NCBI GenBank assembly: GCA_963514005.1
Contig: OY740789.1
Span: 24,676,001 to 24,740,000, forward strand
Reading direction: 5' to 3'
Source: Raja brachyura
Lineage: Eukaryota
Length of the DNA stretch: 64,000 nt
Notes under the pieces: model-generated
Database searches by the model: none
Told to the model about the DNA's origin: nothing
What the model saw: the letters and a program-made list of their open reading frames with translations, nothing else
Translations under genes and position numbers: made by a program
Part shown: in pieces, positions 2,010 to 64,000 of the stretch
Layout of the letters: the number at the start of each line of letters is the position of its first letter
Numbering within the stretch: the stretch's first letter is position 1

Positions 2010-3415
2010 CAGTGCATTCAGAAAGTATTCAGACCCCTTCACTTTTGCCACATTTTGTTATGTTACAGCCTTACTTTAAAATTGATTAAATTCATTTTTT
2101 TAAATCATCAACCTACACACAATACCCCAGAATGAAGAAGTGAAAACAGGTGTTTAGAAATGTTTGCAAAATCATTAAAAAGGAATAACTGAATTATCAC
2201 ATATACATAAGTATTCAGACCCTTTCCTACGACACTCAAAATTGACCTTAGGTTCATCCTGTTTCAATTGATTATCCTTGAGATGTTTCTGCAACTTGAT
2301 TGGAGTCCACCAGTGGTAAATTGATTGGACGTGATTTGGAAAGGCACACACCTGTTTATATAAGGTCACACAGTTGACAGTGCATGTCAGAGCAAAAACT
2401 AAGCCATGAAGAAATTGTCCGTAGACCTCCGAAACAGGATTGGGTCGAGACACAGATCTGGAAAAGGGTATAAAACAATTTCTGCAGCATTGCAGGTCCC
2501 GAAGAGCACAGTCACCTCCATCTTTCTTAGTTCCAAAGAACTTTGGAACCTCCACGACCCTTCATAGAGCATGCCGCCTGGCCAAACTGAGAAATCGGGG
2601 GAGAAGGGCCTTGGTCTGGGAGATGACCAAGAACCTGAAGGTCACCCAGAGGGAGTTCCATAGTTCCTCTGTGGCAATGGGAGAACCTTCCAGAAGGACA
2701 ACTATATCTGCAGCACTCCACCGATCAGGCCTTTATGGTAGAGTGGCCAGATGGAAGCCACTCCTCAGTAAAAGGCACATGACAGCCCGCAGAGTTTGCC
2801 AAAAGGCATGAGAAACAAGATTATCTGGTCTGATGAAACCAAGATTGGCCTGAATGCCAAGAATCACATCTGGAGGAAACTAGGCATCGCCAAATCCCCT
2901 GGCCAATGCCATATCTATGGTAAAGCATGGTGGCGGCATGCTGTGGGGATGTTTTTCAGCGGCAGGAACTGGGAGACTAGTCAGGATCGAGGGAAAGATG
3001 AATGGAGCAAAGTACAGAGAGATCCTTGATGAAAACCTGCTCCATAGTGTTCTGACCTCAGACTGGGGCGGAGGACAGAACACTATGTCACGAAGCCACT
3101 CCTGCGTTGTCTTAGCTGTGTGCTTAGGGTTGTTGTCCTGTTCACCTTTCAACAGGACAACAACCCTAAGCACACAGCTAAGACAACGCAGGAGTGGCTT
3201 CGTGACATGTCTGTGGATGTCCTTGAGTGGCCCAGCCAAAGCCCAGACTTGAACCCGATCGAACATCTTTGGAGGGACGTGAAAGTAGCTGTGCATCATG
3301 CTCCCCATCCAACCTGTCAGAGCTTGAAAGTCTCTGCAGAGATGATTTTAGAATGAGGCTGTAACGTAACAAAATGTGGAAAAATAATGGGGCTGAATAT
3401 TTTCTGAATGCACTA
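2010..3415 (+). mobile_element. Tc1 DNA transposon (IR/DR type), defective
   Basis: TA|cagtgcattcagaaagtattcagacccc ... ctgaatattttctgaatgcacta|TA; inner DR aagtattcagaccc at ~2210; right TIR internally deleted. Confidence 0.93.
2406..3345 (+). pseudogene. Tc1 DD34E transposase pseudogene
   Basis: WSDETK, VKHGGG.M.WGCF, QDNNPKH...[15 protein letters not shown] (34 residues between D and E) spread over several frames. Confidence 0.92.
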
Positions 3416-4130: not shown

Positions 4131-4324
4131 AAAGATAGACACAAAATGGAGTAACTCAGCGGGACAGGCAGCACCTCTGGAGAGCAGGAATAGGTGACGT
4201 TTCAAGTCGAGACCCTTCTTCGGACCCGAAATGTCACCTATTCCTTCCCGCTGAGTTACTCCAGCATTCTGTGTCTATCTTCAACTATCTTCAATAGCAA
4301 CTGCAATTCCTTCCTACACATCTT
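4131..4324. mobile_element. Palindromic Penelope-end dimer with 10-bp TSD
   Basis: gagtaactcagcggga...ggtgacgtttc / gaaatgtcacc...tcccgctgagttactcc; TSD ttgaaagctc at 4121-4130 and 4325-4334. Confidence 0.8.
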
Positions 4325-5756: not shown

Positions 5757-6078
5757 CTCCTCCCTCAACTCGGTAACAGTCCTTTCAGATGAGGCAGAGG
5801 TTCACTTGCACCTCCTCCAACGTCATTTACTGCATCCGTTGTTCAAGATGTGGACTCTTATACATCGGCGAGACCAAACGTAAACCGGGCGAACGTTTCG
5901 CTGAACACCTTTGCTCAGTCTGCCTGAACGTACCTGATCTCCCGGTTGCTAAACACTTTAATTCCCCTTCCCACACCGACCTTTCTGTCCTGGGCCTCCT
6001 CCATTGTCACAGTGAGGCTAAACGCAAATTGAGGAACAGCAGCTTACAACCCAGGGGTTAATATTGATTTATTTAACT
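5757..6078 (+). mobile_element. Penelope-like element GIY-YIG endonuclease fragment
   Basis: RQRFTCTSSNVIYCIRCSRCGLLYIGETKR..ERFAEHL. Confidence 0.9.
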
Positions 6079-10384: not shown

Positions 10385-10600
10385 AAAGCACAGACTGCTG
10401 GAGGAACTCAGTGGGTCAGGCAACATATGTGGAGGAAATTGGTAAGTGACCTTTCAGGTCGTTACCCTTTTTTTAGACTAAGACATAAGGGTACCTACCC
10501 GAAACATCACCTGTCAATTTCTTTCACAGATGTTGCCTGACCCAAGCTCCTCCAGCGCATTGTGTTGGTCTATATTACAACATCTGTAATTCTTTTAGAG
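10385..10600. mobile_element. Older palindromic Penelope-end dimer
   Basis: ctgctggaggaactcag...gtgacctttcagg / cccgaaacatcacc...ctcctccagc. Confidence 0.65.
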
Positions 10601-13159: not shown

Positions 13160-14040
13160 ATTAGAAACATAGATAGAAACATAAAAAATAGGTGCAGGAG
13201 GAGGCCATTCGACCTTCGAGCCAGCACCGCCATTCAATATGATCATGGCTGATCGTCCGCTATCAATAACCTGTGCCTGCCTTCTCCCCATATCCCTCGA
13301 CTCCACTAGCCCCTAGAGCTCTATCCAACTCTCTCTTAAATCCATCCAGTGATTTGGCCTCCACTGCCCTCTGTGGCAGGGAATTCCATGCATTCACAAC
13401 TCTCTGGGTAAAAAAGTTTTTTCTCAGCTCAGTCTTAAATGACCTCCCCTTTATTCTAAGACTGTGGCCCCTGGTTCACCCAACATTGGGAACATTTTTC
13501 CTGCATCTAGCTTGTCCAGTCCTTTTATAATTTTATATGTTTCTATAAGAACCCCTCATCCTTCTAAACTCCAGTCACTCTTCTTTTCGTGTCCATCTTG
13601 TTACAAATGTTGGCCTTGCTGTCATCGTCCGTCCTGAAAAGGACGCAAGCTTCCGTTGACAATCAATGGAAGCCATCACTTGTCGCAATAGATGATGATG
13701 GTAGCAGAATTAGCTCGGGATACTTCCAGTTTCCAGCCCCGCAACGTGGATGCTTCTGCTATGGGGCCTAAACTCCAGTGAATACAAGCCTAGTCTTTTC
13801 AATCTTTCCTCATATGACAGTCCCGCCAACGCATGGATCAATCTCGTGAACCTATGCTACACTGCCTCAATCACAAGGATGTCCTTCCTCAAATTAGGAG
13901 ACCAAAACTGTACACAATACTCCAGATGTGGTCTCCCCAGAGCCCTATACAACTGCAGAAGAACTTCTTTACTCCTGTACTGAAACCCTCTTGTTATGAA
14001 GGCCAACATTCCATTAGCTTTCTTCACTGCCTGCTGTACC
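13160..14040 (-). mobile_element. CR1 LINE 3' fragment nested in the Helitron
   Basis: Tail (AGAAACAT)n at left; antisense of YRSKEVLLQLYRAL..PHLEYCVQFWSP. Confidence 0.9.
13576..13767 (-). mobile_element. 192-bp retroposed insert (Vingi/ingi-like 3' end) within the CR1
   Basis: 12-bp TSD ctaaactccagt at 13564-13575 and 13768-13779; minus-strand end ...gacacgaaaagaagag; family call tentative. Confidence 0.6.
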
Positions 14041-14481: not shown

Positions 14482-15360
14482 ATTGCCATTGCATTTTCAA
14501 GCATAGGGCAGGCCAAGCCAAACAGCTGATTGCATTTTCATTTCATTTCCATTGCCGTTTCAAGCACAAGGCAGGCTAAGCCAAGCAGCTAAATGCATTT
14601 TCATTTCATTTCCATTGCCATTGCAGTTTCAAGCACACGGCAGGCCAAGCCAAACAGCTGATTGCATTTTCATTTCACTTCCATTGCCATTGCAGTATGA
14701 AGCACAGGGCAGGCCAAGCCAAACAGCTCATTGCATTTTCAATTAATGTTCATTGCCATTGCAGCTTCAAGCACAGGGCAGGCTGAACAGCTCACTGCAT
14801 TTTCATTTCACTTCCATTGCCATTGCAGTTTCAAGCTCAGGGCAGGCCGAACAGCTGATTGCATTTATTTCACTTTCATTGCCATTGCAGTTTCAAGCAC
14901 AGGGCAAGCCAAACAGCTGATTGCATTTTCATTTCACTTCCATTGCCATTGCAGTTTCAAGCACAGGGCAGGCCAAACAGCTGATTGCATTTTAATTTCA
15001 CTTCCATTGCCATTGCAGTTTCAAACACAGGGCAGGCCAAGCCAAACAGCTGATTGCATTTTCATTTCACTTCCAGTGCCATTGCAGTTTCAAGCACAGG
15101 GCAGGACAATTCTAACAGCTAATTGGATTTATTTCATTTACATTGCCATTGCAATTTCAAGCACAAGGCAGGCCAAGCCAAGTAGCTGATTGCATTGTCA
15201 TTTCACTTACATTGCAGTTTCAAGCACAGGACAGGCCAAGCCAAACAGCTCATTACATTTTCATTTCATTTCCATTGCCATTGCAGTTTCAAGCACAGGG
15301 CAGGTCAAACAGCTCATTGCAGTTTCAAGCACAGGGCAGGCCAAACAACATTTCATTTCC
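14482..15360. repeat. Minisatellite, 69/64-bp unit, about 13 copies, inside the Helitron
   Basis: Unit attgccattgcagtttcaagcacagggcaggccaagccaaacagctgattgcattttcatttcacttcc; source of the repetitive ORFs LPLQFQAQGRPSQTADCIFIS. Confidence 0.93.
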
Positions 15361-17010: not shown

Positions 17011-17559
17011 CTGTACTGGTATGATCATCCACGCCTCAAACAGCAGAGGGAACGTCCAGTTCCTACCCCCTCCCCTCCAGCTTAATACAGGTCATCAAAC
17101 TGATGCTTCCCTTGCAAGTGTATTCCACAGCCCAGTTTTTCAATAGTTAACTAGTATACTCTGAATTTCTTCCCCCACCTTTCCATATTAGCTATCTCGC
17201 CTCCACTACATCAACTATGACCTTCTATGGACTGTGTTTGTTTGCACAATGGACCACTGTTTTTTTTACACGAGTCCTGTGGTTTTCATGTATTGTTTTT
17301 TATTTTAATTTTATGTCATCCATGTGTATTGTTACATCCACATGTGTGTTATGCTGCTATGCTGTTGCTAGTAGGAATTGTTCCATTGTCAGTACATATG
17401 ACACTTAACACTCTTGACACTTTCTCAGTCCTGATGAAAGTATTCACTGTCCATTTTCCTCCACAGATGCTGCCTGACTACAGAGTTCCTCCAACAGTTT
17501 ATTTTATGCGCCTGATTTCTGCATCTGCAGCCTTTTGTGCATCTGATATTCTAGCTATT

Positions 17560-17685
17560 ATTTATCTCACAATGATAAAAAAAACAGATGATTTAATCAT
17601 TATCAGATTAGCATATGTGCTGGCTTCTTATGCATAAATTGATTCCCATGTTTCGCACTTCGCAAGTGTGACTATACTTCAATAT
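17560..17685 (+). mobile_element. Ancient SacSINE1/DeuSINE-like remnant
   Basis: aaaacagatgatttaatcattatca...aaattgattcccatgtttc...gtgactatacttcaa resembles the Deu-domain 3' part (from memory, not aligned). Confidence 0.4.
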
Positions 17686-17697
17686 TGTCTGACGATA

Positions 17698-17928
17698 TAA
17701 TCAAATCATTAAAAGGAAATGCAGTTGCTGGTTTATGCCAAAGATAGACACAAAATGCTGGAGTAATTCAGCAGGTCAGACAGCATCTCTGTAGAACATG
17801 GATAGGCGACTTTCTACTCAGGACCTTACTACAGTCTGAAGAAGAGTCGTGACCTGAAACGTCACCTATCAATGTTCTCCAAAGGTACTGCCTGACGCGC
17901 CGAGTTACTCCAGTATTTTGTGTCTCTC
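17698..17928. mobile_element. Palindromic Penelope-end dimer with 13-bp TSD
   Basis: Inverted arms; TSD ttgtctgaYgata at 17685-17697 and 17929-17941. Confidence 0.8.
17836..17863 (+). ncRNA. Minimal hammerhead ribozyme core (Penelope type)
   Basis: CTGAAGA-agagtcgtgacct-GAAA-CG-TC: CUGANGA and GAAA boxes, palindromic ACGT stem III, GUC cleavage triplet. Confidence 0.6.
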
Positions 17929-18083
17929 TTGTCTGATGATAGTTTGATTTAAAAACCTTTGTACTTTGCTACAGCTTTCACTGGTCAACATTAGAGTTTG
18001 GTTTCCTGTGGCCTGCTGCTAGTAAGCATAAACTTGAAAATTCTGTTCCTCTTTGAGCTGTTCTGAACTACTTGACATCAGCT

Positions 18084-18343: not shown

Positions 18344-18371
18344 TTCAGGCAAAATTGGAAAAAGAATGTGT

Positions 18372-18865
18372 AGGAAAAAGACACAAAAACCTGGAGTAAC
18401 TCAGCGGGCCAGGCAGCATGTCTGGACAAACGGAATAGGTGATGTTTCGGGTCGAGACATTTTTTCAGACTGAGAGTAAGGGGAGAGGGAACCAAGAGAT
18501 ATGAAAAGCTATATAGAACAAATTAATGAAAGATATACAAAAATACAAACAGTGAAACTCAGTAGGATGACAGTGAAACTAGTACGGCGACTAGGGTGGG
18601 GGAGGGATGGAGAGAGAGGGGAAAGCAAGGGATACTTGAATTGAGAGGAATCAATATTATACCTCTGGGATGTAAGCTACCCATGCGAAATATGAGGTGC
18701 TGTTCCTCCAATTTGCGTTTGGCCTCACACGGACAGTGGAGGAGAAAAATAAAAAGAGAATAAGGCAGTCTGAAGAAGGGGTTCGATCCGAAATGTCACC
18801 CCTTCCTTCCCTCCACAGATGCTGCCTGTCCTGCTGAGTTACACCAGATTTTTGTGTTTATCTTA
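18372..18865 (-). mobile_element. Penelope 3' fragment with inverted terminal copy
   Basis: Antisense of ...RKLEEQHLIFRMGSLHP...; terminal motif present in both orientations (18380-18475, 18766-18862). Confidence 0.82.
18770..18797 (+). ncRNA. Minimal hammerhead ribozyme core (Penelope type)
   Basis: CTGAAGA-aggggttcgatcc-GAAA-TG-TC. Confidence 0.5.
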
Positions 18866-22264: not shown

Positions 22265-23430
22265 CCAAATTACCAGAAGCTTATGCTGCTGTTTATGATG
22301 AAAAGGCAACCTTCTATCCGAGGTGCCCCCATTCCTTGGAAAACATGAATCCCCTCTACTGTTGTAGATGGATTCCTCACCCGAGTGTATTCTGTGTCCT
22401 GAAGTTCTGCTCTTGCTCCCCCTCCCTCCAGATGGAACAAGGATAGTGATTCCCTGATCCTCACATTTCATCCAACCAGCCTCTGCATTCAACATATCAT
22501 TCTCTGACATTTCCACCACCTCCAACGTGATCCCACCACCAGTCATATCTTCCCATCCCTACCCCTTTCCACCTCCCTCAAAGACCGCTAACTCAGCCAC
22601 TCCTTGGCTCAATCATACCTTCCCACCCAAACCACCCCCTCACCAGCTGTTTTTCCCTGCATCGCAGAAGATGCAACAACTGTTCCTATACCTCCTCCCT
22701 CACATCCATCCAGGGACCCCACCAGTCCTTCCAGTTGGGGGACAGAGGTTCATGTGCACCTCCTCGAATCTCATCTACTGCATACAGTATTCCCGATCTG
22801 GCCTCCTTTACATCAGCGAGGCCAAGAGTAGATTTGCCGACTGTTTTGCCAAAGATTTGCACTTTGCCCACTGGATCTCGTGATTGGCAACCATTTTAAC
22901 TCCTCTTTCCATTTTGATACCGATCTTTCAGTCCTGAGCCTCCTCCATTGCCAGAGTGAGACCACACGCAAACTGGAGGAACAACTCCTCATATTCCACT
23001 TGGGTTGCTAATGACCCAACGGTATGAACATTGAATTCTCCAATTTTCGTTTGCCCCCTCTCTCCCCTGTGCCGCATTTGGACTCCCACCCATTTCTCCC
23101 CTCCTGGTCTCCCTCCACCTACATTCCTTCCTCATGCTTCATAATTTGCAACTCTTTTATCCTTATCTCACATCTTTTGGCCTTTCACCTCTGACCTTTG
23201 TCCAACCATCCTCCTATCAAATCATCCCCCTCATCTGTGTCTATCTATCATCTGTGGGGTTTGTCCTGTCCCTCCTTTCTTCCAGCTTTCTTTTGTCCTT
23301 CCACCACAATCAGTCTGACAAAAGGTCCAAATCTAAAACAACAACTATACATGTTCTCCAGAAGTATTGTCTGACCTGTTGAGTTACTCCAGCACTTTGT
23401 AAACCAGCGTCTACAGTTCCTAGTTTCAAC
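22265..23430 (+). mobile_element. Penelope-like element 3' part (GIY-YIG region + terminal repeat)
   Basis: QRFMCTSSNLIYCIQYSRSGLLYISEAK; pyrimidine-rich 3' region; terminal gagttactccagca motif. Confidence 0.88.
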
Positions 23431-31290: not shown

Positions 31291-32366
31291 ATTGAACAAT
31301 TTCAAATGTCAGTGTTTAGGATCAGGGCTACATTTTTAGCACATGAGAGCAGGGCCGGCCTTAGGAAGTGCCGGGCCCAATTGGGAACAATTTTGGTGAG
31401 GCCCAGGTTCCTAGCCATGGTCTGTAGAATCATAGAAATACAAATAAAGTATATTTTAGACTTTATACCTCTATGGTAGAATGGAAAGTAATCACAATGT
31501 GCGCTTAAAAAGTGCCTACGGACCAAACAGATCTGAGCTACATTTTAATATAAAATTGCATACATGTAAGCCTACAAGTAACAAACAAAATGTGTGGATC
31601 ACCTCTGAAAAGTGCATAGTTACAATACCACTTGTTTTAGTGACTGTGGAATGAAAACAAAAATGTAATTAACTAGAGCCTGGAAAACCAATAACTATTG
31701 GGGAAAAACCAGTCCAGGCATTACATTTTGGGCTTCAGCTCCATCCTACCCTTTGGGCTTCTACCCCATCTAAACCTAGTTGTGTGTGTGTGTCTCTTAG
31801 TTGTATGTGTCACTGTCAGTTGTCTGTGCATTATGTGTGTGTGGGAGGGAAGGAGAGGAGAGAGGGAGGGAGAGAAGGGAGGGAGGGAAGTAGAGAAAGA
31901 AGGGAGGGAGGGAAGGCGAGAAGGGGAAAGAGAGAGGAAGGATGGAGGGAAGGAGAGAAGGGAGGGTGGGAGTGGGCCGGCAGCAGAAGCGGATGCGGGA
32001 GTCCGGGCGGACGGGTGTGAGCTGAGGCCGAGGTTTGTAAACATTGCTCCAACCCCCGGCCCAGCCCTCAATGTATTGTTCACTGCGTCTTCCCGGGGAG
32101 AGAGGGGAGGGGGAGCCGGGACTGTGTGCGTGAAGCACGGCAACTGGAGGGACGGGAGCGCTGCCCCGGGACCTTGTGGGCACCTCACCCTTCACCATTC
32201 CCCCTCCCCGTCTACCCCTTTCTTCCTCTTCTGCTCTCTTTCCCCCCTCCACCCAGGGTAGATCTACCCGAGCCGAGAGCAGATTACTCCAAAGCAAAGC
32301 TGAGAGATTAAAGGATAGACAAAAATGCAGCGGGTCGGGCGGCATTTCTAGACAAAAGGAATAGGT

Positions 32367-32394
32367 GACATTTCGGGTCGAGACCCGTCTTCAG
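32367..32394 (-). ncRNA. Minimal hammerhead ribozyme core (Penelope type)
   Basis: Minus strand CTGAAGA-cgggtctcgaccc-GAAA-TG-TC with perfect stem II. Confidence 0.55.
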
Positions 32395-33286
32395 ACTGAG
32401 TCAGGGGAAAGAGGAATTCAAACCGTCCCCCCTCCCCCCCCCCCTTCCCCCCCTTCCCCCTCCGACACCGGCACGGAGCGATCGCCAGCCCCACTTTTTT
32501 TTGGTAAACATCTATTTCCTTCACGTTTTTTAAAACATTTCCCCCTTACCATTTCCATAATTTTTCGATAGCTGCCATGACCCGTTTGATGTCATCCTGC
32601 GCCCTGCTCCTCATAGCTGCTCCTGGTCTCGGCCCGCACCGATCTGCTGTGTGTTTGTGAGTGTGTTTGTTTGGCGGAGTCTGAGGGGAGAAGCGCCGGC
32701 ATCAAGATCGAGCGAACGCACGGACAGATGGACGAAAGCAACGATCATAGAGCGGAATAGGTGACCAAAGATCTTTGTAGGTGACATTTTGGGTCGAGAC
32801 CCTTCTTCAGACTGAGTCAGGGGAAAGAGGAGCAAGAGATATAGAGGGTACTAAGGACAAACGAATGGAAGATATGCCTATATCTCCCGTTTCCCTTTCC
32901 CTTGACTGTCAGACTCAAGAAGGGTCTCGACCAGAAATGTCCACCTATGCCGCTCTATGATCGTTGCTTTAGTCCGTCTCTCCGCGCATTCACTCGCTCT
33001 TGGTGCCGGCGCTTCTCCCCTCATGGCAGCTATCGAAAAAGTCGACCCGAAATATTACCTAGTCCTCTCCAGAGATGCTGCCTGATCCGTTGATTTGCTC
33101 CAGCCTTTTGTGTCTGTCTTCTGTTTAAACCAGCATCTGCAGTTCCTCCCTGTACAAGGAATGTGCCGTTTAAAAAGAAAATTAAATTTAAAAAAAAAAC
33201 ATTTAAAAACACATAGACTGTTCCCACACTACGCTGCGAGAGGCATAACTGAAGTCGGGTCCGGGTTACTGAAATGGTGGAAGTTA

Positions 33287-33762
33287 AGGGCCTGTCCCAC
33301 CAGCATGCAAATCTATGCGATGAGCGCGACCTAACGTGGTTGCTTGAGCCGTCCGGCGTCGCGTGGCCGGTCCCACTTCGATCGCCGGAGCCGTGCGGAA
33401 TTGTGTGGAGTTCGTCCCGACATTGCGCGGGGCTCCGAAAAACTGACTATGTTCAAAAATTCCGCGCGGCAACGGCTTGTCGGCTCGCAGTCACCTCGAC
33501 GCATTACACACCGCCTCGACGTCGAGCCTCCGTGACCCTCTCTGTTGGTGCCTCCATGACCCTCTGTGTGTGTGGCTCCGTGGCCCTCTCTGTGTGTGCC
33601 TCTGTGCGCCCCTCTCTGTCCTGGCGAACGTACCTTTAGACTTCGCTCCAAGTTCGCCTCACTTTTCGCCGTGTTGCGCCACTCACCCGACTTCCGCGTG
33701 GCCCCTGCTGCCGGTTTGGTCGCACTTGCCGCATGCAGGCGCTTGCTGGTGGGAACGGCCCT
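33287..33762. mobile_element. PIF/Harbinger-like MITE nested in the hAT element
   Basis: tta|agggcctgtcccaccagca ... tgctggtgggaacggccct|gta. Confidence 0.7.
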
Positions 33763-34282
33763 GTACAGGGATCACCCGACCTCCGCGCGGCCCCCGCTTC
33801 TAGTTTGATCGCGCTCGTCGCATGGAGTCGAATGCTGGTAGAACAGGCCCTTTACTACCCGTCAGTCCATTGTATTTCGCAGGAGTGGACCATCTTGCAC
33901 TCTATAAGATCTTTGCTCCAATTGATCCTAGAGCGGAGCTCTCGGATCTTTTGATTACTCTAGCGCGGGGCTCCCTTAGCTGCGGGGCCCCAATTGGGAG
34001 CAATCGGTCCAATCGGCTTAAGGCCGGCCCTGCATGAGAGGACCGTTCAGTAGTTCACCAGTGGAATATCATCCATCATTATACCACTGGTTCCCAATGT
34101 GGATACTGCATCAGAATTACAAGAGTGATCCATCACCAGCAATGCCCTATCCTGATCAGTACATTTGACATAGAAATAGATGTAGGCACAATTTACTCTG
34201 GGTTAAATCAATTATTAATTGCATAGATATCAGCGCAATGTGATCAAATTCCTAAGAAAGAGTGGTAACTGCCAATGTTATG

Positions 34283-35315: not shown

Positions 35316-37716
35316 TGTTATGTCAGTCAATGAAGTGGCAAAGTGGAGAGTCTGGGGCTCACAGTAATCAGTCCAACATACACACTTTAGGCAGAGTCTG
35401 GTGAAAAAGGAGAGAGGCAAAATATTACAACAACTTTCTCCAATAGAAGCAATGTAATTTCTCCAGAAATTTTATGTATGGAAAATAATTACATAAATTA
35501 TATGTATAGAGTTAATCGTAGTAATTTATAGCTCATACGGTCTCATTGATAACTCACTCTGACGGTTATACCACTGTCATTTTAAGCAGCTATTCTGTGG
35601 TGAAAAGAAACATCCAGGTCTTTACTGGAAACAACTGTTAATAATTTCCATCTACACCAATTCCTTTGACATTGCTCAGCAGCTTAGTAACAGATTGTTA
35701 GAAAACTCCAAAGCAGGGAAAGTAACTTTGCCTTTAAGGGTTAATTCCTCCAGGGACTTGCCAGATATGTGGATGAACTGTTCTTTTCCTACCATAATTG
35801 GCTCACCAATCCAATCCAAAAAGAGAACCAGGACTTGACACGAGTTTGCAGAAGGCTTTCAACCCTGCTACATCACCTATTCCTTTTCTCCAGGGATGCT
35901 GCTGGACCCGTTGAGTCACTCCAGCACTTTGTGTCTATCACGGGACATGTCATGGTCCATATTAGGCTTCCCTTCATCCACAAATTCAATACCCCCAATT
36001 CATAGCCAGAGGTAAAACTGAACCACAAGATAAACCAACATGATTCAGTCTCAGTTTCCATTCATAAGTTATGGTCTCAATTTTAAACCAAGCAGTTGGG
36101 GGACATCTTGTCACTTGCAGTTACCAAAGGTCACTTGAATAGTTCTTATTGCCACATGCAGCTGGAGACGGGGAAATTCTTGTTTTGCATAAAATCCAGT
36201 AAAATCATACTATACATAAGCACAATCATACACAAGTACAAGAGTTCAACGACTGTTGTGTACAAATAGATTGCCTCTGAGGCTGTTCACAATGAGTTGC
36301 CACATCTGGTGCCACCTTGCACCTCAAGTATCAAGGTCTTAAAAGTATTGAGTCTTATCTTGACCTTAGAGGCAGCACTGGCTCGGTGATGTTGGGGTTG
36401 GCGTGGACTGGTGATGCTATTAGTGTCCTCCAGTGCCACTCCGTGCTACTGCAAGCCACATCCAATCTGCCTGCCCGTCCGACTTCTATGTCAGAAGCGC
36501 CTAATCCACGCAATCCCCCAGTTGCTGTAGGGCCTCCAACACTGCAACGTGCAAACATGCCATCCTCTGGCCTCCCACAGCCAGCGCTGCTGTGTGCTTC
36601 CCATAATTGATCACGGAACCCCCAGAGCGCTTCCAAGGGAATTGGAAACAAGCTCACACACATTGATCTTCTGTTCCGTCCACCACCATCGTGGCCAACA
36701 TAATTGATGAAGCACTTTCTATGGCAGCTACACTATGTCTTAAACTTTAGCACATAATTTCTTCCACACAAGCTTCTCGAACTCTGGCTTCCTTTTAAAG
36801 GCACACTTGTAAACAAATTCCTCTCATAATCAACTAAACATAATCTCTACTACTATATACTAGGAACATCAATTCTCTCTTTTGACCCTGTTAAGTATTT
36901 TCAGCATCAATATTCATTACTATGAATACACACTAATATCAATGCCAATACCATGTTCAGCACAATACAGCACAGAATTTTTAAAGTGGATGCATGAAAA
37001 TATAATGAAACATTAAACTTATTGACAGAAAGATTTGGCTTCATGCTATACGAGGGAGGGTAGAAGAGGCATCTCAGTGGAATAACCATGCAAGAGTGAT
37101 GTTCAAAAATGTGTCTCCAAGTAACCTCAGATGACTCACATGGGTTTACATCAGGTCAGAGTCCCAATGTGCTTCCCCAGCTGTGGAAGTGCATTGCCAA
37201 AAACATGAATAACATATTTTGAGATGAATAAAATGGTCTCAACAATTTAAGGCAAGTCCGAACTACCAAAGAGTAATTTCTCTGCAATCTCAAAAGACAA
37301 AGTAAATATTTGCTTTTTTCATTTCCATTCTGTCATGGATTGTTAAACCGCTCTCATTGGCTCCCATATCTGGCACAACCCAGTATTGACTCGAGATTAA
37401 GCAAATATGGAGGTGGTTTAGATTTACATGGCTTTTCTGGTAACCTGGCTGTGAGCCCAACTAACAGACATTACATCAGTGAACTTTCATGCCAGCTAGC
37501 AGCAGAAGTGTTATTAATTTGGAACTTATCTTTCTCCAAATCTGATTTTGATGTGGCATAAGACCCTATTATTATTATTATTATTATGATGAGGCCTCAG
37601 CTCTTGCTTCAGACCCCAAAAACACACCATTTAGATAAAGTGCTTTTTCATTTTTTCCCCACCATAAAATGGATGATTTCACATTTCCCCATTTACAAGA
37701 TCTTCTGCAATTCACT

Positions 37717-40039: not shown

Positions 40040-40187
40040 AGGCACAAAATGCTGGAGGCAGCATCTCTGGCGAGAAGGAATGGGTGACATTTCAGGTCGA
40101 GACCCTTCTCCTGCCGAGTTCCTCCAGCATTTGTTGTGTCCATCTTCCGTTTAAACCAGCATCTGCAATTCCTTCCTAACATTTTGT
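40040..40187. mobile_element. Palindromic Penelope-end dimer with 17-bp TSD
   Basis: TSD ctgctggaagttatgaa at 40023-40039 and 40188-40204. Confidence 0.8.
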
Positions 40188-41722: not shown

Positions 41723-42111
41723 CTACTTCAAAGATTTTTTTTTTTAAATGCTATAATTGAAAGTGCTTGGGAATTCTAAAGTGTAGTAAACACACTGGTG
41801 GAAGAATTATGATTCAAATTGACTGAAACTATCTATAGCATCTCAGAAATTTGCCATTAAGCTTTATAGTGGCTGCAGTTAAATTGATATATTTGTGTTT
41901 AAACAGACTCACATAAAGTATTCCCTTTATACTGTTGGTGAAACAGAATTGAAGGTCTTGACTTTAGCATGTGATACAAGGGAGTTTTTTTAATTGCAGA
42001 GAAAGATGATGAAATATCAGACAAAGCATTGAAGAGGAAGTGAGTAATTTTCTGAGAATGGGAACAGCAGAGATGAGGTAAATGACGGCATAGCATTTGA
42101 CCAGCCTCTTA

Positions 42112-42673
42112 AGGGCCTGTCCCACTGCAGGGACATAATTTGTGAGTTTAGAAGAGTTTGCGCTCGACTCAAACTCACAGCATGGTCGACATGTGGTCCT
42201 AGGAGGTCAAATAACTCTCCTTCATGCTCAAGAGAAGTTCCCGCAAACTCGAGGCCTCAGTTTGGTCGAGGAGTATTTTTTAGCAGCTGAAAATTGTTCG
42301 CAAGTAAAAATTGGTCGGCATGGAAAAACAAAAACAAAAAAAAATTTTTTTTTACTTGTAGGTTTAGTCGAAGTAGGTCGGCATTTTGTTCGTAGGTAAT
42401 CAAAGGCAATCGAAGGTAGTCGTAGATAGTGTTAGTATAGTCAAAGGTGGTCGTGTTCATCTCCACTATTCAGTCCAACTTTCCCAAAGCCCGATAGTCG
42501 AAGGGGGTCTTCTACATAGTCGAAAGAGGTCTTCTACTTATTCGTAGGAGGTTCTCTGCATAATCGAAGGAGGTCGTAGGAGGTGTTCTACTTCGGCAAT
42601 ACAACAAGACCATGACACTTTTTAAAAACTCTCCTAAACTTGCAAATTAGGTTTCTGCAGTGGGACAGGCCCT
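42112..42673. mobile_element. PIF/Harbinger-like MITE
   Basis: TIR agggcctgtcccactgcag / ctgcagtgggacaggccct with TTA TSD on both sides. Confidence 0.88.
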
Positions 42674-43175
42674 TTAGCATTGTGGTGAGCTAATTTAGAA
42701 ACTTTATACGTGCAGCATATTGTTGTTAGCAAATTGGCTTATTAGAAAATGCAAGTGAACAGCTATCCAATTGCTATCCAATTGCTAACTTATTTAACAT
42801 GCGAAACACTATCTGCTCTTCACACCTAGTATCATGTCTCTTAGAGTTTACAGTCTTGTTGATTTATTCATGAGAGTCCTATTGAATATGTTGAACTGAT
42901 TACTGATGCATGTTTATCATGTTTATTGCAATCTATGATGCAATTTCAAAATTTTGAGTTTTTCATTTGCGAGGTTACAGTGGGAGGGACTAAACACCTC
43001 CTAGATGACAAGCAGCCAAGTAAAAATGCTTATTTTAAAAATATTTACTGATTTTATCTGGTGCAACTAACCTTCATATATGTGAGATATAGAAGTTGAT
43101 TGCACCACATGGTGGATTGCATATGGATTGGAATGAGATGCAATGACCTGGATGACCAAGTCATCAATATCTAAT

Positions 43176-44499: not shown

Positions 44500-46325
44500 G
44501 AGTGGAACTCAGAGTGCATTTGAATTAGCTTCCTAAAGCAAATATTATGGAGGCAAGTCGGAAACTGGTTATTTTGGATCTGATACTGGGCAATGAGTCA
44601 AGTTTACTAAATGATCTCCTGGGAAGGTGTAATCATGGCATGATTAAAATTGGCATTCAGTTTAACAGTGAGGACCAGATCTGAAACATTGTTAAATTGA
44701 AATAAGGAGAATTATAAGGGACTGAGGATTGAGTTGGATAAAGTGGACTAGGCAAATAGGTTGGCAATTAACACTGCGGACAAGAGAGTGGCAGACATTT
44801 AGGAAATTAAATAAGAGAAACGATTATGCACAGTTCTGGTCCTCCTGCTATGGAAAGGATGTCATTAATGGAAAGGATGCAAAAAAAAAAGGACGTTACT
44901 GGTCTGTAAGGAATGAGTTGTAAGGAGAGACTGGGTAGGTAAGGACTTCTTTTTCCTAGAGTCTAGGATGCTGAGAGTTGACCCTTGAGGTTTATAAAAA
45001 TAGATAAGATGAACAGCAACAGTATTTTCCTCAGGGTAGGGGAGTTTCAAACTGGAGGGCATAGGTTTAAGGTGAGAGGGGAAGATTTAGAAGAAGAGTC
45101 TCGATCTGAAACATCACCCATTCCTTCTATCTAGAGACGCTGCCCGTCCCTCTGAGTTACTCCAGCACTTTTTTGTCTATCCTCAATGGACCCAAGAGGC
45201 AACATCTTCTCACTGAAAGTGGCTTGTAGATGGAACTAGCTGCACAGGAAGTGGGAAAGACAGATACAATTATGACATTTAAAACACTAGAACAGGCATA
45301 CGGATACGGAAGGTTTGGAGGGATATGGGACAGGCACAGGCATGTGGAACTATTTTGGTTAGGCACCTCAGTGGCATGGGTCAAATTGGGCCAGAGGCCC
45401 TATTCTCTATGAATTAACTACTTTATATGAAGGAAGAGGTTAAAATGAATATAGGCCCTTTTGAGAATGTGGTTGGAGGAAATAGCTATGGGTAACAGAA
45501 AAGAACAGCAGAATTAAACCGATCAGACTTTATGATGGAAGAATCTCACTGATCAAATCTGGAATCACTGTCACCATGGCATTAGTATCAGGCAAACAAT
45601 GAGGAGGAAAGCTGTCAAGTCCTCTGGTTCCAAAGCATCCTAGAATCTTAAAAGTAGCTGAGACAGTGGTAACATTGGTTGTTATGTTCCACAAATCCTT
45701 AGGACTTTGAGTGGTACTGAGGAGTTGGAGAAATGTATCTGTGATACGAGTATTCAGAGTGTGGTTGGCAAAAAACAGGTAACCATAGACCAGTTAGCTC
45801 AACATCTATTATTGGACAAATGTTAGAATCTATCATGGAGGAACATTTAGAAGATCATGTTAGAGACAAAATGCTGGAGTAACTCAGCGGGACAGAGGAT
45901 CATAATCTGATCAAGCAGAATCAGGAAGGCTTCAAGAAGGGGAAAAGATATCTGACAACGTAAAGTTCTTTGAGGAAGTATTGGCCAGAGTGGATAGAGG
46001 TGAAGTGTTTCTTGCAATATATTTTGATTTTTAAAAAGTGATCAGCAAGATGCAACACTAATGGTTGCTTCACAAGATGGGAGCGAAATGGTAATATATT
46101 AACGTGGATAGAGAGTTGGCCAGAGCAAGAATTTCATTGTCCTATCTGAGACACATGACAATAAACTCTCTTGAACTTGAAACAAGTTGCAGGAAGCGGT
46201 GAGTGAGGTTAAGGCTATTTCCAGGTTGGTATCTGTAACCAGGCTGGTTGCTGCAAGTGAAGCTGTCTACAATATATACCAACAACTTAAAGGAAGGAAA
46301 CCAATGTTGTGCTGCCAGTTTTGAA
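44500..46325 (+). mobile_element. Highly decayed CR1 ORF2 with nested CR1 3' and Penelope ends
   Basis: ILDL.LGNE, NKENYKGL, NIGP.EN, GNHRPVSS, KFFEEV motifs in broken frames. Confidence 0.65.
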
Positions 46326-52103: not shown

Positions 52104-52274
52104 TTGAGTATATGGCAATAAAACTCAATCATGATTTTGAAGCATTCACTATTGTCATTTGACAGGTTGAATAGAAATGTCCCCAATATCGTTGTTTTAT
52201 TAATAGTGAGATTAAACGAGAACTTACCTGTTCGAAGTTTGATCTTTATTTTATGAGGAGTTACGATGAGGGAT

Positions 52275-52311
52275 TACGTGAAGAAGACCCCGCCTGGCGC
52301 TGGAACGGCAT
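52275..52311. repeat. DIRS right ITR core (37 bp)
   Basis: tacgtgaagaagaccccgcctggcgctggaacggcat is the exact reverse complement of 57049-57085. Confidence 0.95.
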
Positions 52312-52428
52312 ACTTCAAAGCAGCGGCATGAAAAACACAGAACCAATAGCCGGAGTAAAATAGTAAGGCTCAAAATAGACTAGAACTACCAGATGATCAT
52401 TTATATTATGAGGGTTGGGAGTGGAGGG

Positions 52429-52541
52429 CACGTAATCCCTCATCGTAACTCCTCATAAAATAAAGATCAAACTTCGAACAGGTAAGTTCTCGTTTAATCT
52501 CACTATTTTACTTCGGAGTCACGTGAGTGACTACGTGAAGA
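52429..52541. repeat. DIRS internal complementary region (ICR)
   Basis: 52429-52507 is the exact reverse complement of 52202-52280 (79 bp); 52505-52541 is the reverse complement of 57076-57112. Confidence 0.95.
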
Positions 52542-52793: not shown

Positions 52794-53760
52794 TTAAAGA
52801 GAACCCAGTACTGCGTGTCCAAATCCTGGCACCGTGACAACAGGTTTATTGTAGAACTTTGAAAAAGTTTCTTCTCGAGACCACCCTGCGGCCTCTAAAA
52901 TTTGATCGAGTGGTACGTCCTGTACCTTCGCCGCGGACGTAGCTGCCGCCCTAATGGAGTGAGATTTAAACACATCAGTGTCTATTCCTGCTAGACCCAA
53001 AACCTGTTTTAACCATCTAGAAATGGTTTGAACTGAAACTTTTGTAGGTGGTTTTTTGTGTGTTATCAATAACGCTTTCTCAGAACCCCTGAGATTTTTG
53101 GTTACCTCCATGTATTGAGTTAAATGCTTAACTACACACAATGTTTCATCAATAGGATATGCTTTAAACATTACCTTCATTCCAGTTCTCCCTGGTCTGC
53201 TTTGTTTGATCAAGTCATAAACATAAAACACAATGTTATCTGAAGTTACATGCATGCAATCCAACCTTAACAATTGCAAAGTCTGTACTCTTTGAGCTGA
53301 TACCAATGCCATTAACATAACCACCTTGAATGTTAAGTTCTGCAAAGACATTGAATTAATTGGAGTCCATTGTTTAAGTAAAGTGAGAACAATGCTAACA
53401 TCCCAAATTTCTGTATATCTGGGCTTGGGAGGATTTTTATTAAAAATACCTTTCATGAATCGGGATACTAATGGGTGAGACCCAACTGAATCCCGATCCG
53501 AAATTTGTCCTAAATAGGATGACAATGCACTCCGAGCACAATTAATGGCACTATAACTCAAATGCTCATCAAAGTGTAACCCAGCAAGGAACTCCAATAC
53601 ATTTGAAATGTTTGCAGAATGATTAGATATCTTTGACTGTGTACAAAAGGCTTCCCATTTTCTTATATGCGACATATATTGTTTATTTAGTGCTAGTCCT
53701 CCAAGCTGCATCTATAACATCCATGGTCCTGTCCGACAGTTCAAACTCTTGCAATGGTCT
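52794..53760 (-). CDS. DIRS tyrosine recombinase (N-terminus frameshifted near 53685)
   Basis: Catalytic signature R (SAQRVQTL), HxxR (HSIR), W (AAGWS), Y (FSKFY); upstream frame DAAWRTSTK joins KQYMSH after a 1-nt insertion. Confidence 0.92.
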
Positions 53761-53762
53761 GG

Positions 53763-55160
53763 TCAGAACCTGCAGATTAACAAATTCATATGATTATGCA
53801 ATGGATGAATTTCTTTTGTTACTGGTTGTGTCAACAGATTGACGCAACTGGGAATTACCATACATGGTTCAATAATCATTTTAAGCATCAATGGGAACCA
53901 TGACTGTGTGGGCCAATTTGGCACCACCAAAATGCCTTTGGCAGCGTCTTGCGCTATTTTCTTGAGACATTGCCCAATGAGACAGAATGGGGGAAAAGCA
54001 TAAAAGAACATATTCCCCCAGTGTAGCGAGAAAGCATCCACCGCTACTGCCCCTGGATCGTGTTCCCAAGACACGTATTTCGGCAATTGGTGATTCAATC
54101 TAGATGCAAACAGATCAATGTCCGGTACTCCATACCGACTGACAATATTTTTGAAAATTTGTGGATTTAACATCCATTCTGTATTGTCTTTAAATATTCG
54201 TGATCTTTTGTCTGCCACAACATTGTCTCTCCCCGGGAGATAAATAGCTGAAAGCCAAATATTTTTTGCAATACACCACTGCCATATCTGGTTTACCAGA
54301 TGATCACATGAAATTGATCTGACACCACCCATGTGATTGATATATGCCACAGCTGTGGTATTATCTATTTGTACTTGGACATGCAAATCCTTTAATGAAG
54401 AGCAATAAGCTTTTAATCCATAAAATGCTCCCAGTAGCTCCAAATAATTAATACCATATGTTTGGAGCAATAAATCCTCTTGGACAGCCCATCTGCCTCC
54501 ACAGCTGGTATCATTATCCGTAGCACCCCATCCGAGAGAACTTGCGTCAGTTTGTAAAAACACGACTGGCTGATGAACCAAAATGTTCTTAGCAGCTTGT
54601 GGAACATTCTCAATCCACCAATGTAATTCCGATAAAGCTTCCTTAGGCAATTGCATTGGCCTATCAAAATGGCCTGCTCGCTGAACTAGCGCTTTAGTTT
54701 TTTCCCTTTGAAGATTTTGGTAATGTAAACGACCAAATTCTACTGCTGGAAATGCTGCTACCAATTTACCAATACCCTTGGCAACCTCTCGGATGGAGGG
54801 ATAAGGTTTGTTAATCAGGTTTTGACACACATTTGTCAAATCCAACTCCTTATCCATTGGTAAAGTTACCAACATGGTGACTGAATTAATCACAAACCCC
54901 AGATATTCAATGGTTTGGGATGGCTGTAACTTAGACTTTGTTGGATGGATCAGAAACCCCAACTTCTCAAACAAGCTAATAGTTGCTGAGACTGATTTCC
55001 CAGCTGATTCCTGATTAGCATTGACAATTAAAATGTCATCTAGATAAGCCATAACAATGTGTTTTTGTGCCCTTAGCAGTGCAAGTGCTGGCTTTAACAA
55101 TTTAGTGAACAATCTAGGTGCTGAACTTAATCCATTAGGCAAAGCTTTGTATTGCCACAA
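53763..55160 (-). CDS. DIRS RT C-terminal part + RNase H + DNA N6-adenine methyltransferase-like domain (465-aa open stretch)
   Basis: ALPNGLSSAPRLFTK, AYLDD (RT); TDASSLGWGA, INYLEL, DNTTAVAYIN, NVVAD (RNase H); IDLFAS and YAFPPF (Dam-like MT motifs). Confidence 0.93.
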   Translation of the reverse strand: MWQYKALPNGLSSAPRLFTKLLKPALALLRAQKHIVMAYLDDILIVNANQESAGKSVSATISLFEKLGFLIHPTKSKLQPSQTIEYLGFVINSVTMLVTLPMDKELDLTNVCQNLINKPYPSIREVAKGIGKLVAAFPAVEFGRLHYQNLQREKTKALVQRAGHFDRPMQLPKEALSELHWWIENVPQAAKNILVHQPVVFLQTDASSLGWGATDNDTSCGGRWAVQEDLLLQTYGINYLELLGAFYGLKAYCSSLKDLHVQVQIDNTTAVAYINHMGGVRSISCDHLVNQIWQWCIAKNIWLSAIYLPGRDNVVADKRSRIFKDNTEWMLNPQIFKNIVSRYGVPDIDLFASRLNHQLPKYVSWEHDPGAVAVDAFSLHWGNMFFYAFPPFCLIGQCLKKIAQDAAKGILVVPNWPTQSWFPLMLKMIIEPCMVIPSCVNLLTQPVTKEIHPLHNHMNLLICRF

Positions 55161-55700
55161 GTCCCATCCATTTAAACTTTAAATACCTGCGAAAATCATG
55201 ATGAATTGGGACCGAATAATATGCATCCTTCAAGTCTATTGTAGCCATATAACAACCTGTTGATACCAACTGCATTGCAGTGTAGAAAGTGTCCATTTTA
55301 AAATGTTTATACTGGACAAATGTATTCAAAAATGTGAGATCTAAAATGATCCTACAACCCCCATCTTTCTTTGGTCTGGGGAAAATGTTTGATATAATTT
55401 GTTGTGGATCCTCTCCTGTTTTCTCGATAACTCCTTTTTTACTCAAATTCTTAATCTCTTTGTCCATTTGATTAATCTCAAACTCTGAGAACCTCAAAGG
55501 ATGACTAGGCTCATTCTGTCCCAATGGAACCATACCTTCCACAAAATCAATGGTAGATCCTAGTACAGTGTCTAATACCACACGATCAACTGTAATATTG
55601 TCCCATTCCTTATAAAACATTTGGAGTCTACCACCAATCTGTGGCTCATCCCAGCATTCCTCTTTAACAGGATAATGTTTATGTACCTCTCCCACTGGAC
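55135..55700 (-). pseudogene. DIRS reverse transcriptase, N-terminal part
   Basis: GGRLQMFYKEW, SNIFPRPKKDGGCRIILDL, HFKMDT, IDLKDAYYSVPI; frameshift at ~55160 joins it to the next ORF. Confidence 0.92.
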
Positions 55701-55799
55701 GAAATGATCTTCTTTTCCCAATGAATGGGTGTACATTCGGCTGTGTTGGCTGGAAATTTTTCCTTATCATACTCCTGCCTCGGCTTGTACCAGCTCCAA

Positions 55800-56891
55800 A
55801 ATCAAATCTCTTCCTCGAATAGCCAGTCCATCTCTGGCCAAAGTTGAAGGGTTTCATACGACCAAAAGTTTTTGCTTCTTCATCTATTTCTTTAATTTGT
55901 TTAGACAAATCCTCTCCGAACAAAAACCCAGGAGTTTGAACATTGCTTGGTTTACACAATCCTGCAAATCTTGGATGTAACAGAGGTCGAATGGCAATCT
56001 CATGCAATTAATCTCAAAAAATGAGTTGCAAAATAAGGCCAACATATGTTTCTGCACTTTGGTCATTCCACAACCTTCCACTTGTCTGCCAAGTGCAGTA
56101 ATGCCAGCTGAAATCAGCTTGAGGACTCTTTGAAATCAAATTTCCTGCGCCCGCATAATTGATGACATTGGCGCCCAAACAACTGGATTCACCGTAGGTA
56201 CCTTCAATGAGGCACAATTGATAGGTGTTTTATACATTTCTGCTGTCTCAACCATAACAGCATCTTGAAGCGGGTGAGAGACCAAATAATTAATATTGGC
56301 CGCCAGGTTTTCTTCCATGGCCTCACCGCCTCCTCCAGGTATAGCAAAATCTTGTGCCACATCAGGCACACCTGGATCCATATATTTGTATTGTGGTATG
56401 TACTACGGACCACAATCACCACTTTCAGGGTCTGTCTCATACAGCCCTGGTACTCCTGAAACTTGTTCAAAGGAGACTTCCTCCAGTCCATACCCAGGCA
56501 CTGGGGTTTCAAATTCCCAATTCGAATTGGCACCATATTCACGATATGGAACCCCCTCAGGGGCTGCCTGGGAATATTCTGGGTTCTTAGACCCTTGGTT
56601 GATAATAGTCTGGAGCATTTTCTCCATTTGGTCCATTCTGAGCCATAAGGCTTTCCTTTCTGGACCTTCAGAATCAGAGTCCTCAGAAACCCCAGGCCTT
56701 TCAGCTTTTCTTTTACTTTTTTTAGGCACTGGGATTTCCTCTACAGTTTCTGTTTGTGGAGCAATCAAAGCCTCACTAACGGGTGTTTCAACGGCCACCG
56801 GTATCGGAACCAGCTCCGCAATAATCTGCTGTCCCGACTCTTCTGAACCCCGGGACGCACGTTTTACCCGCTGTTTTTTGGCCTTCTCCAT
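55800..56891 (-). pseudogene. DIRS gag-like ORF1, disrupted
   Basis: ORFs 56403-56891 and 56136-56381 are in frame across a TAG (GP*YIPQ); a TGA follows (QEI*FQRVL); a frameshift near 56000 leads to IRPLLHPRFAGLC...LFGEDLSK, typical of DIRS gag C-terminal regions. Confidence 0.8.
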
Positions 56892-57048
56892 TTTGTTTTT
56901 TACTAACTCCTCCTGGTTTTCCCACCAGGCTACGGAGTTCTGAAACCTCGCCCTAAATTTTGTAAAACGTTCTTACCTGCGGGCCGGTTCCGTACCGCTG
57001 TGTGGAGCTGCGCTCTGCAGCTCTTTCGCTGCCGACAGCGACGACGTA

Positions 57049-58205: not shown

Positions 58206-58685
58206 GTACAACATTAAGGTAGACACCAAAATGCTGGAGTAACTCAGCGGGGCAGGCAGCATTCCGGGAGAGAAAGAATGGTAGACATTTTGGGTCGAGA
58301 CTCTTCTTCAAACTCTAATCCTACCTCAGCTACAGACCACTTTTACCACCATTTGTTTACCAATTGTGTTTTGCACTAAGGTCTATTTTGGCACACGGTC
58401 TTTTTCTTTTCACTGTCTTGTAGAATGTGTGTGAATTGGAATATGCCTGTGATGCTGCTGGCGACAAGACTTCCATTTTAGTTGTACCTTAACTTAGCTT
58501 GGGGGGGAAAAAAAAACTCCGGAGTACACTGGAATAACTCAGCGGGTCAGGCAGCATCTCTGGAGAAAATGGATAGATAATGTTTCAGATCAGGACGCTT
58601 CTTCAGAATTCTGCCAAGTTTATTTAGCTTGACTTACTACAATAAAATGTCAGGCAACAAGAAAATTCAAATTCTATCAACTGCA

Positions 58686-63061: not shown

Positions 63062-63226
63062 GATGTGTGGGAAGGAACTGCAGAAGCTGGTTTAAGCGGA
63101 AGATAGACACAAAGAGCTGGAGTAACTCAGCGGGTCAGGCAGCATCTTTGGAGAAAACATCACCTATTCCTTTTCTCCAGAGATGCTGTCTGACCTACTG
63201 AGTTACTCCAGCTCTTTGTGTCTAAA
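63062..63226. mobile_element. Palindromic Penelope-end dimer (centre deleted)
   Basis: gacacaaagagctggagtaactcag / ctgagttactccagctctttgtgtc inverted arms. Confidence 0.75.
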
Positions 63227-64000
63227 CAGGAACAATTGGCCTTAGTGGACCAGATTGTTCTGGTTGCTGGAAAAGCTTAAAAATGCCATTGCCGATCTCC
63301 GCAGGTGCGTACTTTTCAGATTTGTTTCACACGTTCACAGTGTGTGGTGGAATGGGCGCTGAAAAACTATTGGCGGCTGCCAGGGGTCAAATTTCAGTGA
63401 GATTTTCCTCCTGCTCCAGCCTCTGACCTGGGTTTGAGCTGCACTGCCACAGTTATGAAAGCAGGATTGGTTGTTGCGTTACCTTCCAACTTGCACATCA
63501 CCATATTCATTTCCTTCTTTTGGTCAAGTAACATTTCTAGCCGGGTTTTACACGCTTGCATGCACTTCCACAGAAATAACTGAACCATTCAGTAGTGTTA
63601 CCTCAGGCTACATTCTCAGATTGCACAAATAATCTCATCTCTATTGAGGGAGTGCTTCAACTCAATAAAACTGCAATTATCTCGTAACTGCCCTAACTCT
63701 GCTAAGAAAGCCAAGGATTCACTCTGCACTCAATTACAAATATTGTTAACAGTTGGCCATTTCATTTCCAGGTAGGTTCTAATTTGGTTATGGTGCAACT
63801 GATGAACACTCATGCATTTCATTTGAGGACTTTCTGATATGCTACAAATATTTGCCCATGTTTCCAGACAAAAATAACAAACACAGTTAATCTGGCAAAA
63901 TCAGTTCTTTATATCATGTTCAAGAAGAAACTGCAGATGCTGGAAAATCGAAGGTAGACAAAAGTGCTGGAGAAACTCAGGGGGTGAGGCAGCATCTATG

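Follow-up and report, generated by a model that had tools for sequence, protein, structure and literature searches.

Minimal fold-back units in a skate genome as probable truncated insertion products of a Penelope-like element

A 64-kb window of skate DNA (the whole stretch analysed, which is repeat-rich animal DNA) contains five two-arm inverted units made of the terminal sequence of a Penelope-like element (PLE). These units are probably the shortest, dead-on-arrival insertion products of an endonuclease-positive, Neptune-like PLE, each assembled from twin cDNAs that would have been started on the two target strands. They represent the known PLE layout in minimal form, and the clue that they contribute is a fixed stop on the arm that lacks a tail. 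The preliminary description of this DNA had left two readings side by side, a self-propagating family of ribozyme-bearing fold-back elements (a 'ribozyme MITE') and a stereotyped abortive Penelope insertion. The first is not supported, in view of junctions that differ, arms that tend to group by element, and hammerheads that are mostly decayed and inverted; the layout of one tail-bearing and one tail-less arm, a length series of copies and, again, the differing junctions support the second.

The units are 141-231 bp long and consist of terminal sequence only. They are listed with their parts and relatives in Table 1, where positions within the element are numbered from the predicted hammerhead cut site on the consensus of 21 window arms. 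BLAST searches with three units as queries give 21 merged intervals of the terminal sequence in the 64 kb. The palindromic organisation that had been described, two inverted Penelope ends, holds for all five: segment 17713-17930 forms a single hairpin (-100.7 kcal/mol, z -10.5) equalled by none of 200 shuffles, and folding of both strands gives z of -9 to -15 for four units and just -2.4/-1.5 for the 40040 unit. Internal deletions are also present in units 4131 and 40040. Rfam miRNA matches at 3106-3187 and 63102-63227 fall below the cut-off and reflect hairpins. The filler at the left edge of the 17698 unit, whose origin as an inverted copy of the right flank is only suggestive, and the unequal arms had been missed in the preliminary description.

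Table 1. Fold-back units, the parts of the 17698 unit, and related copies of the PLE in the window. Limits are 5' limits relative to the predicted cut site, oriented by the tail and given as tail-less/tail-bearing arm.
Feature	Coordinates	Strand	Remarks
Fold-back unit	4131..4319	+	Limits -30/-13; duplication 4116-4130/4320-4334
Fold-back unit	10389..10595	+	Limits -31/about -29; symmetric junction; more diverged sequence variant; duplication not significant
Fold-back unit	17698..17928		Limits -32/about -29; parts in the next eight rows
Left target-site duplication	17685..17697	+	13 bp, one mismatch to right copy
Non-element filler	17698..17712	.	Weak likeness to inverted right flank; 69/3000 random 41-mers score equally
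PLE 3' 'tail'	17713..17740	-	+68 to +95; on this arm only
Tail-bearing arm (pLTR end)	17741..17835	-	Hammerhead core decayed
Junction, short palindrome CAG-T-CTG	17832..17838	.	Centre 17835; same as 10389 junction, both tail-oriented
Tail-less arm	17832..17928	+	-32 to about +66; 85/99 identical to window consensus
Minimal type-I hammerhead core (predicted)	17836..17863	+	Stem II with 4/5 pairs, 2-bp stem I, ACGT palindrome; cleavage predicted after 17863
Right target-site duplication	17929..17941	+	
Fold-back unit	40040..40187	+	Limits -24/+33; duplication 40023-40039/40188-40204
Fold-back unit	63065..63224	-	Limits -7/+10; no CTGAnGA box; duplication not significant
Longer copy, same layout	18367..18864	-	Long arm (tail partly deleted) through 3' UTR into GIY-YIG C-terminus; ~21 nt filler; inverted tail-less arm to -32
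Degenerate 3' part of parent PLE	22349..23421	+	Linker and GIY-YIG frame, 3' UTR, hammerhead end with tail; diagnostic bases in common with 17698
Better-preserved GIY-YIG fragment, same PLE family	5777..6058	+	Without terminal repeat; PF01541 24.6 bits, cut-off 22.6
Solo tail-less arm	35843..35939	+	Starts at -31
Solo tail-less arm	45090..45185	+	Starts at -26
Solo tail-less arm	58216..58314	-	Starts at -31
Solo tail-less arm	58529..58607	-	Starts at -29
Complex nested inverted locus	32312..33151	.	Tail-less arm to about -53; counter-example to fixed stop

The Penelope origin proposed for the units is borne out by longer window copies in which the same end continues into a GIY-YIG frame. Coding sequence at 22349-23068 (+) and 18658-18744 (-), upstream of that end, aligns with ray and shark proteins in tblastn, and the best named protein matches to the PLE fragment of the window come from skates, rays and sharks. 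Because the terminal end runs on from GIY-YIG coding copies, it belongs to an endonuclease-positive PLE, and on this continuity the fold-back units are assigned to the 3' end of an endonuclease-bearing element. PF01541 scores above its cut-off at 5777-6031, in DNA 71-86% identical to the 22349-23068 and 18658-18744 frames. Among five ray and shark homologues scanned, GIY-YIG was scored in three (one above cut-off), RVT_1 in two and both in one; homologue P0004 combines GIY-YIG with an RVT_1 score of 22.7 bits (cut-off 29.6). Single degenerate frames taken from the 22-23 kb copy matched nothing in Pfam, in one protein search or in Atlas, a profile-free search returned 25 weak matches for this copy, including P0001 and P0014, and no RT core of this PLE was found in the 64-kb window. 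Cys pairs are visible in the PLE frames of the window, and the Neptune clade is described as having a Cys-rich domain between RT and endonuclease (PMC3846280); a Neptune-like assignment of the parent, resting on these pairs, is not proven. The copy that ends at 23421 extends about 1 kb, and 18367-18864 repeats the layout of the units with a long arm that reaches the endonuclease frame, so that the small units can be placed at the short end of a length series. Contig records matching one arm number 35,308, 40,953 and 45,274 in runs from three organisms, figures that are not copy numbers.

The two arms of a unit are not equivalent. In all five units a tail of ~30-35 nt (+68 to about +102) is carried by one arm, and the other arm ends near +60 to +67. 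The 5' limits in Table 1 define four junction types, one of which is common to 10389 and 17698; it is symmetric and lies on a small palindrome just 5' of the hammerhead core. In three of the five units (4131, 40040 and 63065) each arm holds sequence absent from its partner, which argues against either arm being a plain copy of its partner. A 5' limit can be read for 13 tail-less arms: it lies between -29 and -32 in 7 of them and between -21 and -32 in 10, and the other three stop at -7, +27 and about -53. Seven of 13 ends in one 4-nt window were obtained in 4 of 200000 draws under a uniform null, which is crude and is applied here to limits set partly by eye on copies 73-94% identical; this count omits the short fragment 48055 and two inner arms of the 32.3-33.2 kb locus, both of which continue into UTR. 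An initiator-like TCAGT sits at the tail-less stop near -31. The ends of the tail-bearing arms are scattered, from +33 to beyond -950. Two further structures carry the PLE end. At 32312-33151, outer PLE arms enclose a perfect 20-bp inverted repeat (32561-32580/33021-33040) and an inner 340-bp fold-back in which foreign sequence is joined to the PLE end at about +10; at 17423-17534 (+), 170 bp ahead of the 17698 unit, the PLE end occurs in an older variant that has a CTGATGA box and a tail of its own.

Each unit had been credited with its own direct repeat. Scored against 1500 random pairs of 30x30 nt with at most one mismatch, the repeats are significant at three of the five units and not at the other two. 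The 4131 unit is flanked by 15 bp with one mismatch, 10 bp being exact (3/1500 random pairs) and the 40040 unit by 17 exact bp (1/1500); for the 17698 unit the script returns 12 bp at 17686-17697/17930-17941 (13/1500), which become 13 bp by eye with 17685/17929. For 10389 and 63065 the best repeat is 8 bp, as found in 234/1500 random pairs, and the flanks of the solo tail-less arms contained no duplication.

These features would fit the following course of insertion. The PLE protein would cut both target strands with a stagger, which would give the duplication, and each target 3' end would prime reverse transcription on the element RNA. A start at a distal site would produce the tail-bearing arm and a start at a proximal site the tail-less arm. 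The tail-less cDNA would in most cases stop between -29 and -32, immediately 5' of the hammerhead core, perhaps because the RNA begins there, where the initiator-like motif lies, or because of a block; the tail-bearing cDNA could end anywhere between +33 and beyond -950. Microhomology may then join the two cDNA ends, and where both end near -31 they would overlap at the small palindrome and yield the symmetric form. The hammerhead would be a passenger in this process, uncut in the template and base-paired away in the hairpin. That there were two cDNAs, one per strand, is inferred from the reaction of the anole PLE, whose protein is described as cutting and extending both target strands, with two internal start sites that delimit the tail and with the RNA left uncut (PMC11167929). 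Against this reading stand the lack of a significant duplication in two of the five units and around the solo arms, the tail-less arm that reaches about -53 at 32312-33151, and the stop at -7 in 63065; in addition, central deletions after insertion could account for the asymmetric junctions equally well. Two other causes of the fixed stop were considered. A splice acceptor is a weak candidate: CAG precedes -29 in five of five longer copies, yet the whole UTR is pyrimidine-rich, no splice donor pattern matched in three UTRs, and five arms, either solo or joined to filler, had no spliced-in upstream exon in common (the best pairs in 25 comparisons reached P of about 0.02). The hammerhead cut as the 5' terminus of the template was rejected, as the arms continue past the cut site into the core.

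It is conceivable, though rather unlikely, that the units are instead remnants akin to solo pLTRs. From an element with an inverted pLTR followed by pLTR-ORF-pLTR and tail, recombination or deletion would have removed the ORF and one direct repeat, with the outer duplication kept, and later central deletions would have given rise to the asymmetric forms. This route leads directly to the symmetric junction of 10389 and 17698 and is in keeping with the internal deletions in 4131 and 40040. Its demands are considerable, however: many full-length precursors are needed and none is present in the window, recombination between repeats of ~100 nt is expected to be rare, and the inverted arm of 18367-18864 is joined to a truncated body without a second direct repeat. 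Precedent for the starting point does exist, with Pen2a of Adineta showing the full layout, its inverted pLTR attached to the direct pLTR's 5' end, and with solo pLTRs in the same work ascribed to recombination or deletion (PMC3846280).

Less probable still is a snap-back, in which one cDNA would fold on its own 3' end at a short palindrome and copy the second arm from itself. A junction on a palindrome in two of the five units agrees with such an event, as do the diagnostic bases common to both arms within an element. Non-consensus bases are held in common at 0.040 per site within an element (6 pairs) versus 0.011 between elements (60 pairs), CpG columns excluded, in a comparison of six elements in which conversion between arms would give the same sign. 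The arms thus appear to group within their own element and not by side; those of 10389 have 8 non-consensus bases in common, and those of 17698 are nearest to the coding copy at 23311 (5 and 4 bases in common). Self-copying does not readily produce 4131, 40040 and 63065, where the sequence that each arm holds and its partner lacks would call for extra deletions, and it leaves the solo tail-less arms with the same 5' limit unexplained.

Whether the units descend from one another had been proposed as a question of breakpoints, shared ones pointing to a replicating family and unique ones to independent insertions. Neither outcome is sufficient by itself: a family could still show unique breakpoints, since hairpin centres are open to deletion once inserted, and a common breakpoint does not by itself establish a family, as 10389 and 17698 have the same junction and yet differ in diagnostic bases. 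The breakpoints were examined on the copies within the window, where one of the four junction types is common to 10389 and 17698, and on public contigs. The occurrence of this junction in copies with different diagnostic bases suggests, on sequence grounds, a hot spot. Among the contig joints listed (15 of 22), 8 switch strand; in every one of these, one side falls at 4221-4231 (about -26 to -30) and its partner at one of six places in 4173-4196 (+23 to -1), which mirrors the asymmetric units. Each of these joints is represented by 1-4 contigs per run, none of those listed is symmetric, and both clusters lie where the reference arm ends (4225) or has private mismatches (near 4183), in assemblies of a kind that breaks at hairpins. 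Loose contig ends at 4221 and 4225 (649 and 890 contigs, run X1) show low agreement (0.35) and do not read as fold-back sequence. No single structure or junction is therefore common to the copies, with four junctions in five units and six partner positions in the contig joints, a small sample. Contigs on 4186-4226 also contain joints that go back 35-38 nt (1-2 contigs each, several runs); these point to a head-to-tail duplication confined to the hammerhead core, from which a dimer ribozyme could form.

The hammerhead itself is present in a single complete copy. As the preliminary description had it, the central CTGAAGA-stem motif is best at 17836-17863: the pattern CTGAnGA-stem-GAAACGTC occurs once in the window and in none of 100 shuffles. 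The features of a minimal type-I PLE hammerhead (CUGAnGA and GAAA boxes, UH cut site, stem II, palindromic stem III positions) are found there and in the window consensus, which agrees with the identity suggested earlier, here as a prediction; stem II has a G-U closing pair, and the very short stem I noted before was found again by eye. Motif scanning thus locates the core, but the Rfam hammerhead models return nothing at E<=1 in the window, 17836-17863 included. Both boxes and the cut triplet are retained by 4 of the 22 arms that were scored, and only the right arm of 17698 has ACGT as well; a full core (both boxes, cut triplet, ACGT palindrome) is accordingly present in 1 of 10 fold-back arms, and the 40040 and 63065 units contain no CTGAnGA box on either strand. 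The idea of a hammerhead on each strand is not confirmed by these counts. Where a core exists, the unit appears to conceal it. Leaving it unpaired costs 13.0 kcal/mol in the whole 17698 unit versus 6.4 in its isolated arm; for an idealised young copy the figures are 29.3 kcal/mol in the unit versus 4.8 in the arm. Whichever strand is read, the antisense arm comes before the sense core, so that the core would have no co-transcriptional window, and a second sense core is absent, so that no intramolecular dimer can form. The arms also run through the cut site, which indicates that their templates were uncut.

A self-propagating, retrozyme-like family of non-autonomous fold-back elements, mobilised in trans by the PLE protein and making use of its hammerheads, is consequently very improbable. 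The uniform outer ends, the junction found twice and the complete tail-bearing 3' end kept in each unit are what such a family would show, and trans-mobilisation can rely on pLTRs acting in cis (PMC3846280); blocked hammerheads, moreover, are known from viroids and from the retrozymes of plants (PMC7229834). The three least diverged units nevertheless have three different junctions, the common junction occurs in copies with different diagnostic bases, and intact cores are as rare and as costly to free as described above and are inverted instead of tandem. The head-to-tail hammerheads of retrozymes were not found, the arms being inverted with at most one sense core per strand and no tandem array at these loci. 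A narrower version, in which only the symmetric units are transcribed and reinserted by the PLE protein as one or more hairpin families with the hammerhead blocked by the antisense arm, as in plant retrozymes and viroids, is equally remote. No description of minimal PLE palindromes as a family was found by title or abstract, in a search whose scope lay outside repeat databases and subscription journals. Further copies were also sought with pattern scans; the 10 loci recovered (viral contigs 0, metagenomes 0 and 1, prokaryote genomes 9) match a pattern of 17-20 nt only and are attributed to chance.

Several other features of the window are of interest in their own right. An insert of ~194 bp in a LINE fragment at 13575-13768 (-), with a duplication of 11-12 bp (13779-13768/13575-13564), begins exactly with an HDV-like ribozyme (37.5 bits with the Rfam mammalian CPEB3 model, cut-off 35). 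Its flanks, when joined, align across the junction with other LINE copies of the window, in which the insert is present once. Judged from its letters, it has the appearance of a short retroposon with a CPEB3-like ribozyme as its cap; a literature search by title gave no shark or skate report of such an element, and it is possibly of more interest than the fold-back units. A DIRS-like element with long open frames and matches to tyrosine recombinase PF00589 and RT PF00078 occupies about 52800-57000 (-), adjoining a perfect 79-bp inverted repeat with 148 nt between its arms (52202-52507). A perfect 58-bp inverted repeat with an 8-nt spacer (3085-3208) lies inside what we take, from its translation, to be a Tc1-like transposase fragment. 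The window further contains a tandem array at 14482-15308 (69-bp unit, 12.5 copies, 82% matches) and, at 33279-33859 and 42108-42677, elements with similar terminal inverted repeats of ~50 bp that probably form one non-autonomous DNA transposon family.

Several related fishes have the terminal sequence in great abundance, so that the end points of arms could be charted over thousands of insertions. A fixed 5' stop of the tail-less arm together with a variable stop of the tail arm, if borne out, would be genomic evidence that PLE cDNA is primed on each of the two target strands, in line with what in vitro work suggests. Long hairpins in transcribed regions may also feed RNA editing or small-RNA pathways.

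The proposed course of events can be set beside several known systems. In LINE-1 twin priming both target strands prime cDNA, a 5' inversion is joined by microhomology, and the duplication is kept. These traits are shared by the proposed PLE model, but the second LINE-1 primer anneals inside the RNA and the resulting parts do not overlap, whereas the two arms of a PLE unit are both copies of one terminal region, started at fixed sites. MITEs of DNA transposons are likewise short, with inverted ends and a flanking duplication; the skate units differ in their unequal ends, in a duplication of variable length and in a parent that is a retroelement. Animal non-LTR retrozymes resemble the units in being small, non-coding and PLE-related with a type-I hammerhead, but they are described as tandem, head-to-tail repeats whose hammerheads can fold freely and give circular RNA, and the skate units are head-to-head (PMC7229834, bioRxiv 10.64898/2026.07.22.740005; tandem arrangement also in PMC6765202). 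Minimal hammerheads are reported to occur in opposite-strand pairs 100-700 bp apart and to have low activity even as dimers (PMC4209133). The Schistosoma pairs, which are two facing PLE hammerheads ascribed to truncated PLEs in the same source, are close to what is seen here, although the skate cores are adjacent or deleted and the animal group, and probably the PLE clade, is another. Drosophila Penelope has an internal promoter and an intron that ends at the hammerhead (PMC2377424, PMC4209133). The origin of the inverted ends and tails of PLEs is termed undefined in the PLE literature available here, in which an inverted truncated copy and a tail are general PLE traits (PMC8557442, PMC8969392) and the typical unit joins an inverted truncated copy, a 30-40 bp tail and a duplication (PMC3846280, PMC8557442). 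In the accessible parts of PMC3846280 and PMC8557442 a tight 5' stop of the tail-less arm is not stated, and the skate units also stand apart in being terminal-only (141-231 bp) and in their duplications of 13-17 bp. The Adineta PLEs, for their part, have duplications of 8-10 bp, together with an inverted pLTR, a 31-bp tail, 5' palindromes and solo pLTRs (PMC3846280). Ultimately, it is the insertion units of endonuclease-positive PLEs that the skate units match in the inverted arm, the tail at one end, the duplication, the GIY-YIG parent and the hammerhead within the terminal repeat.
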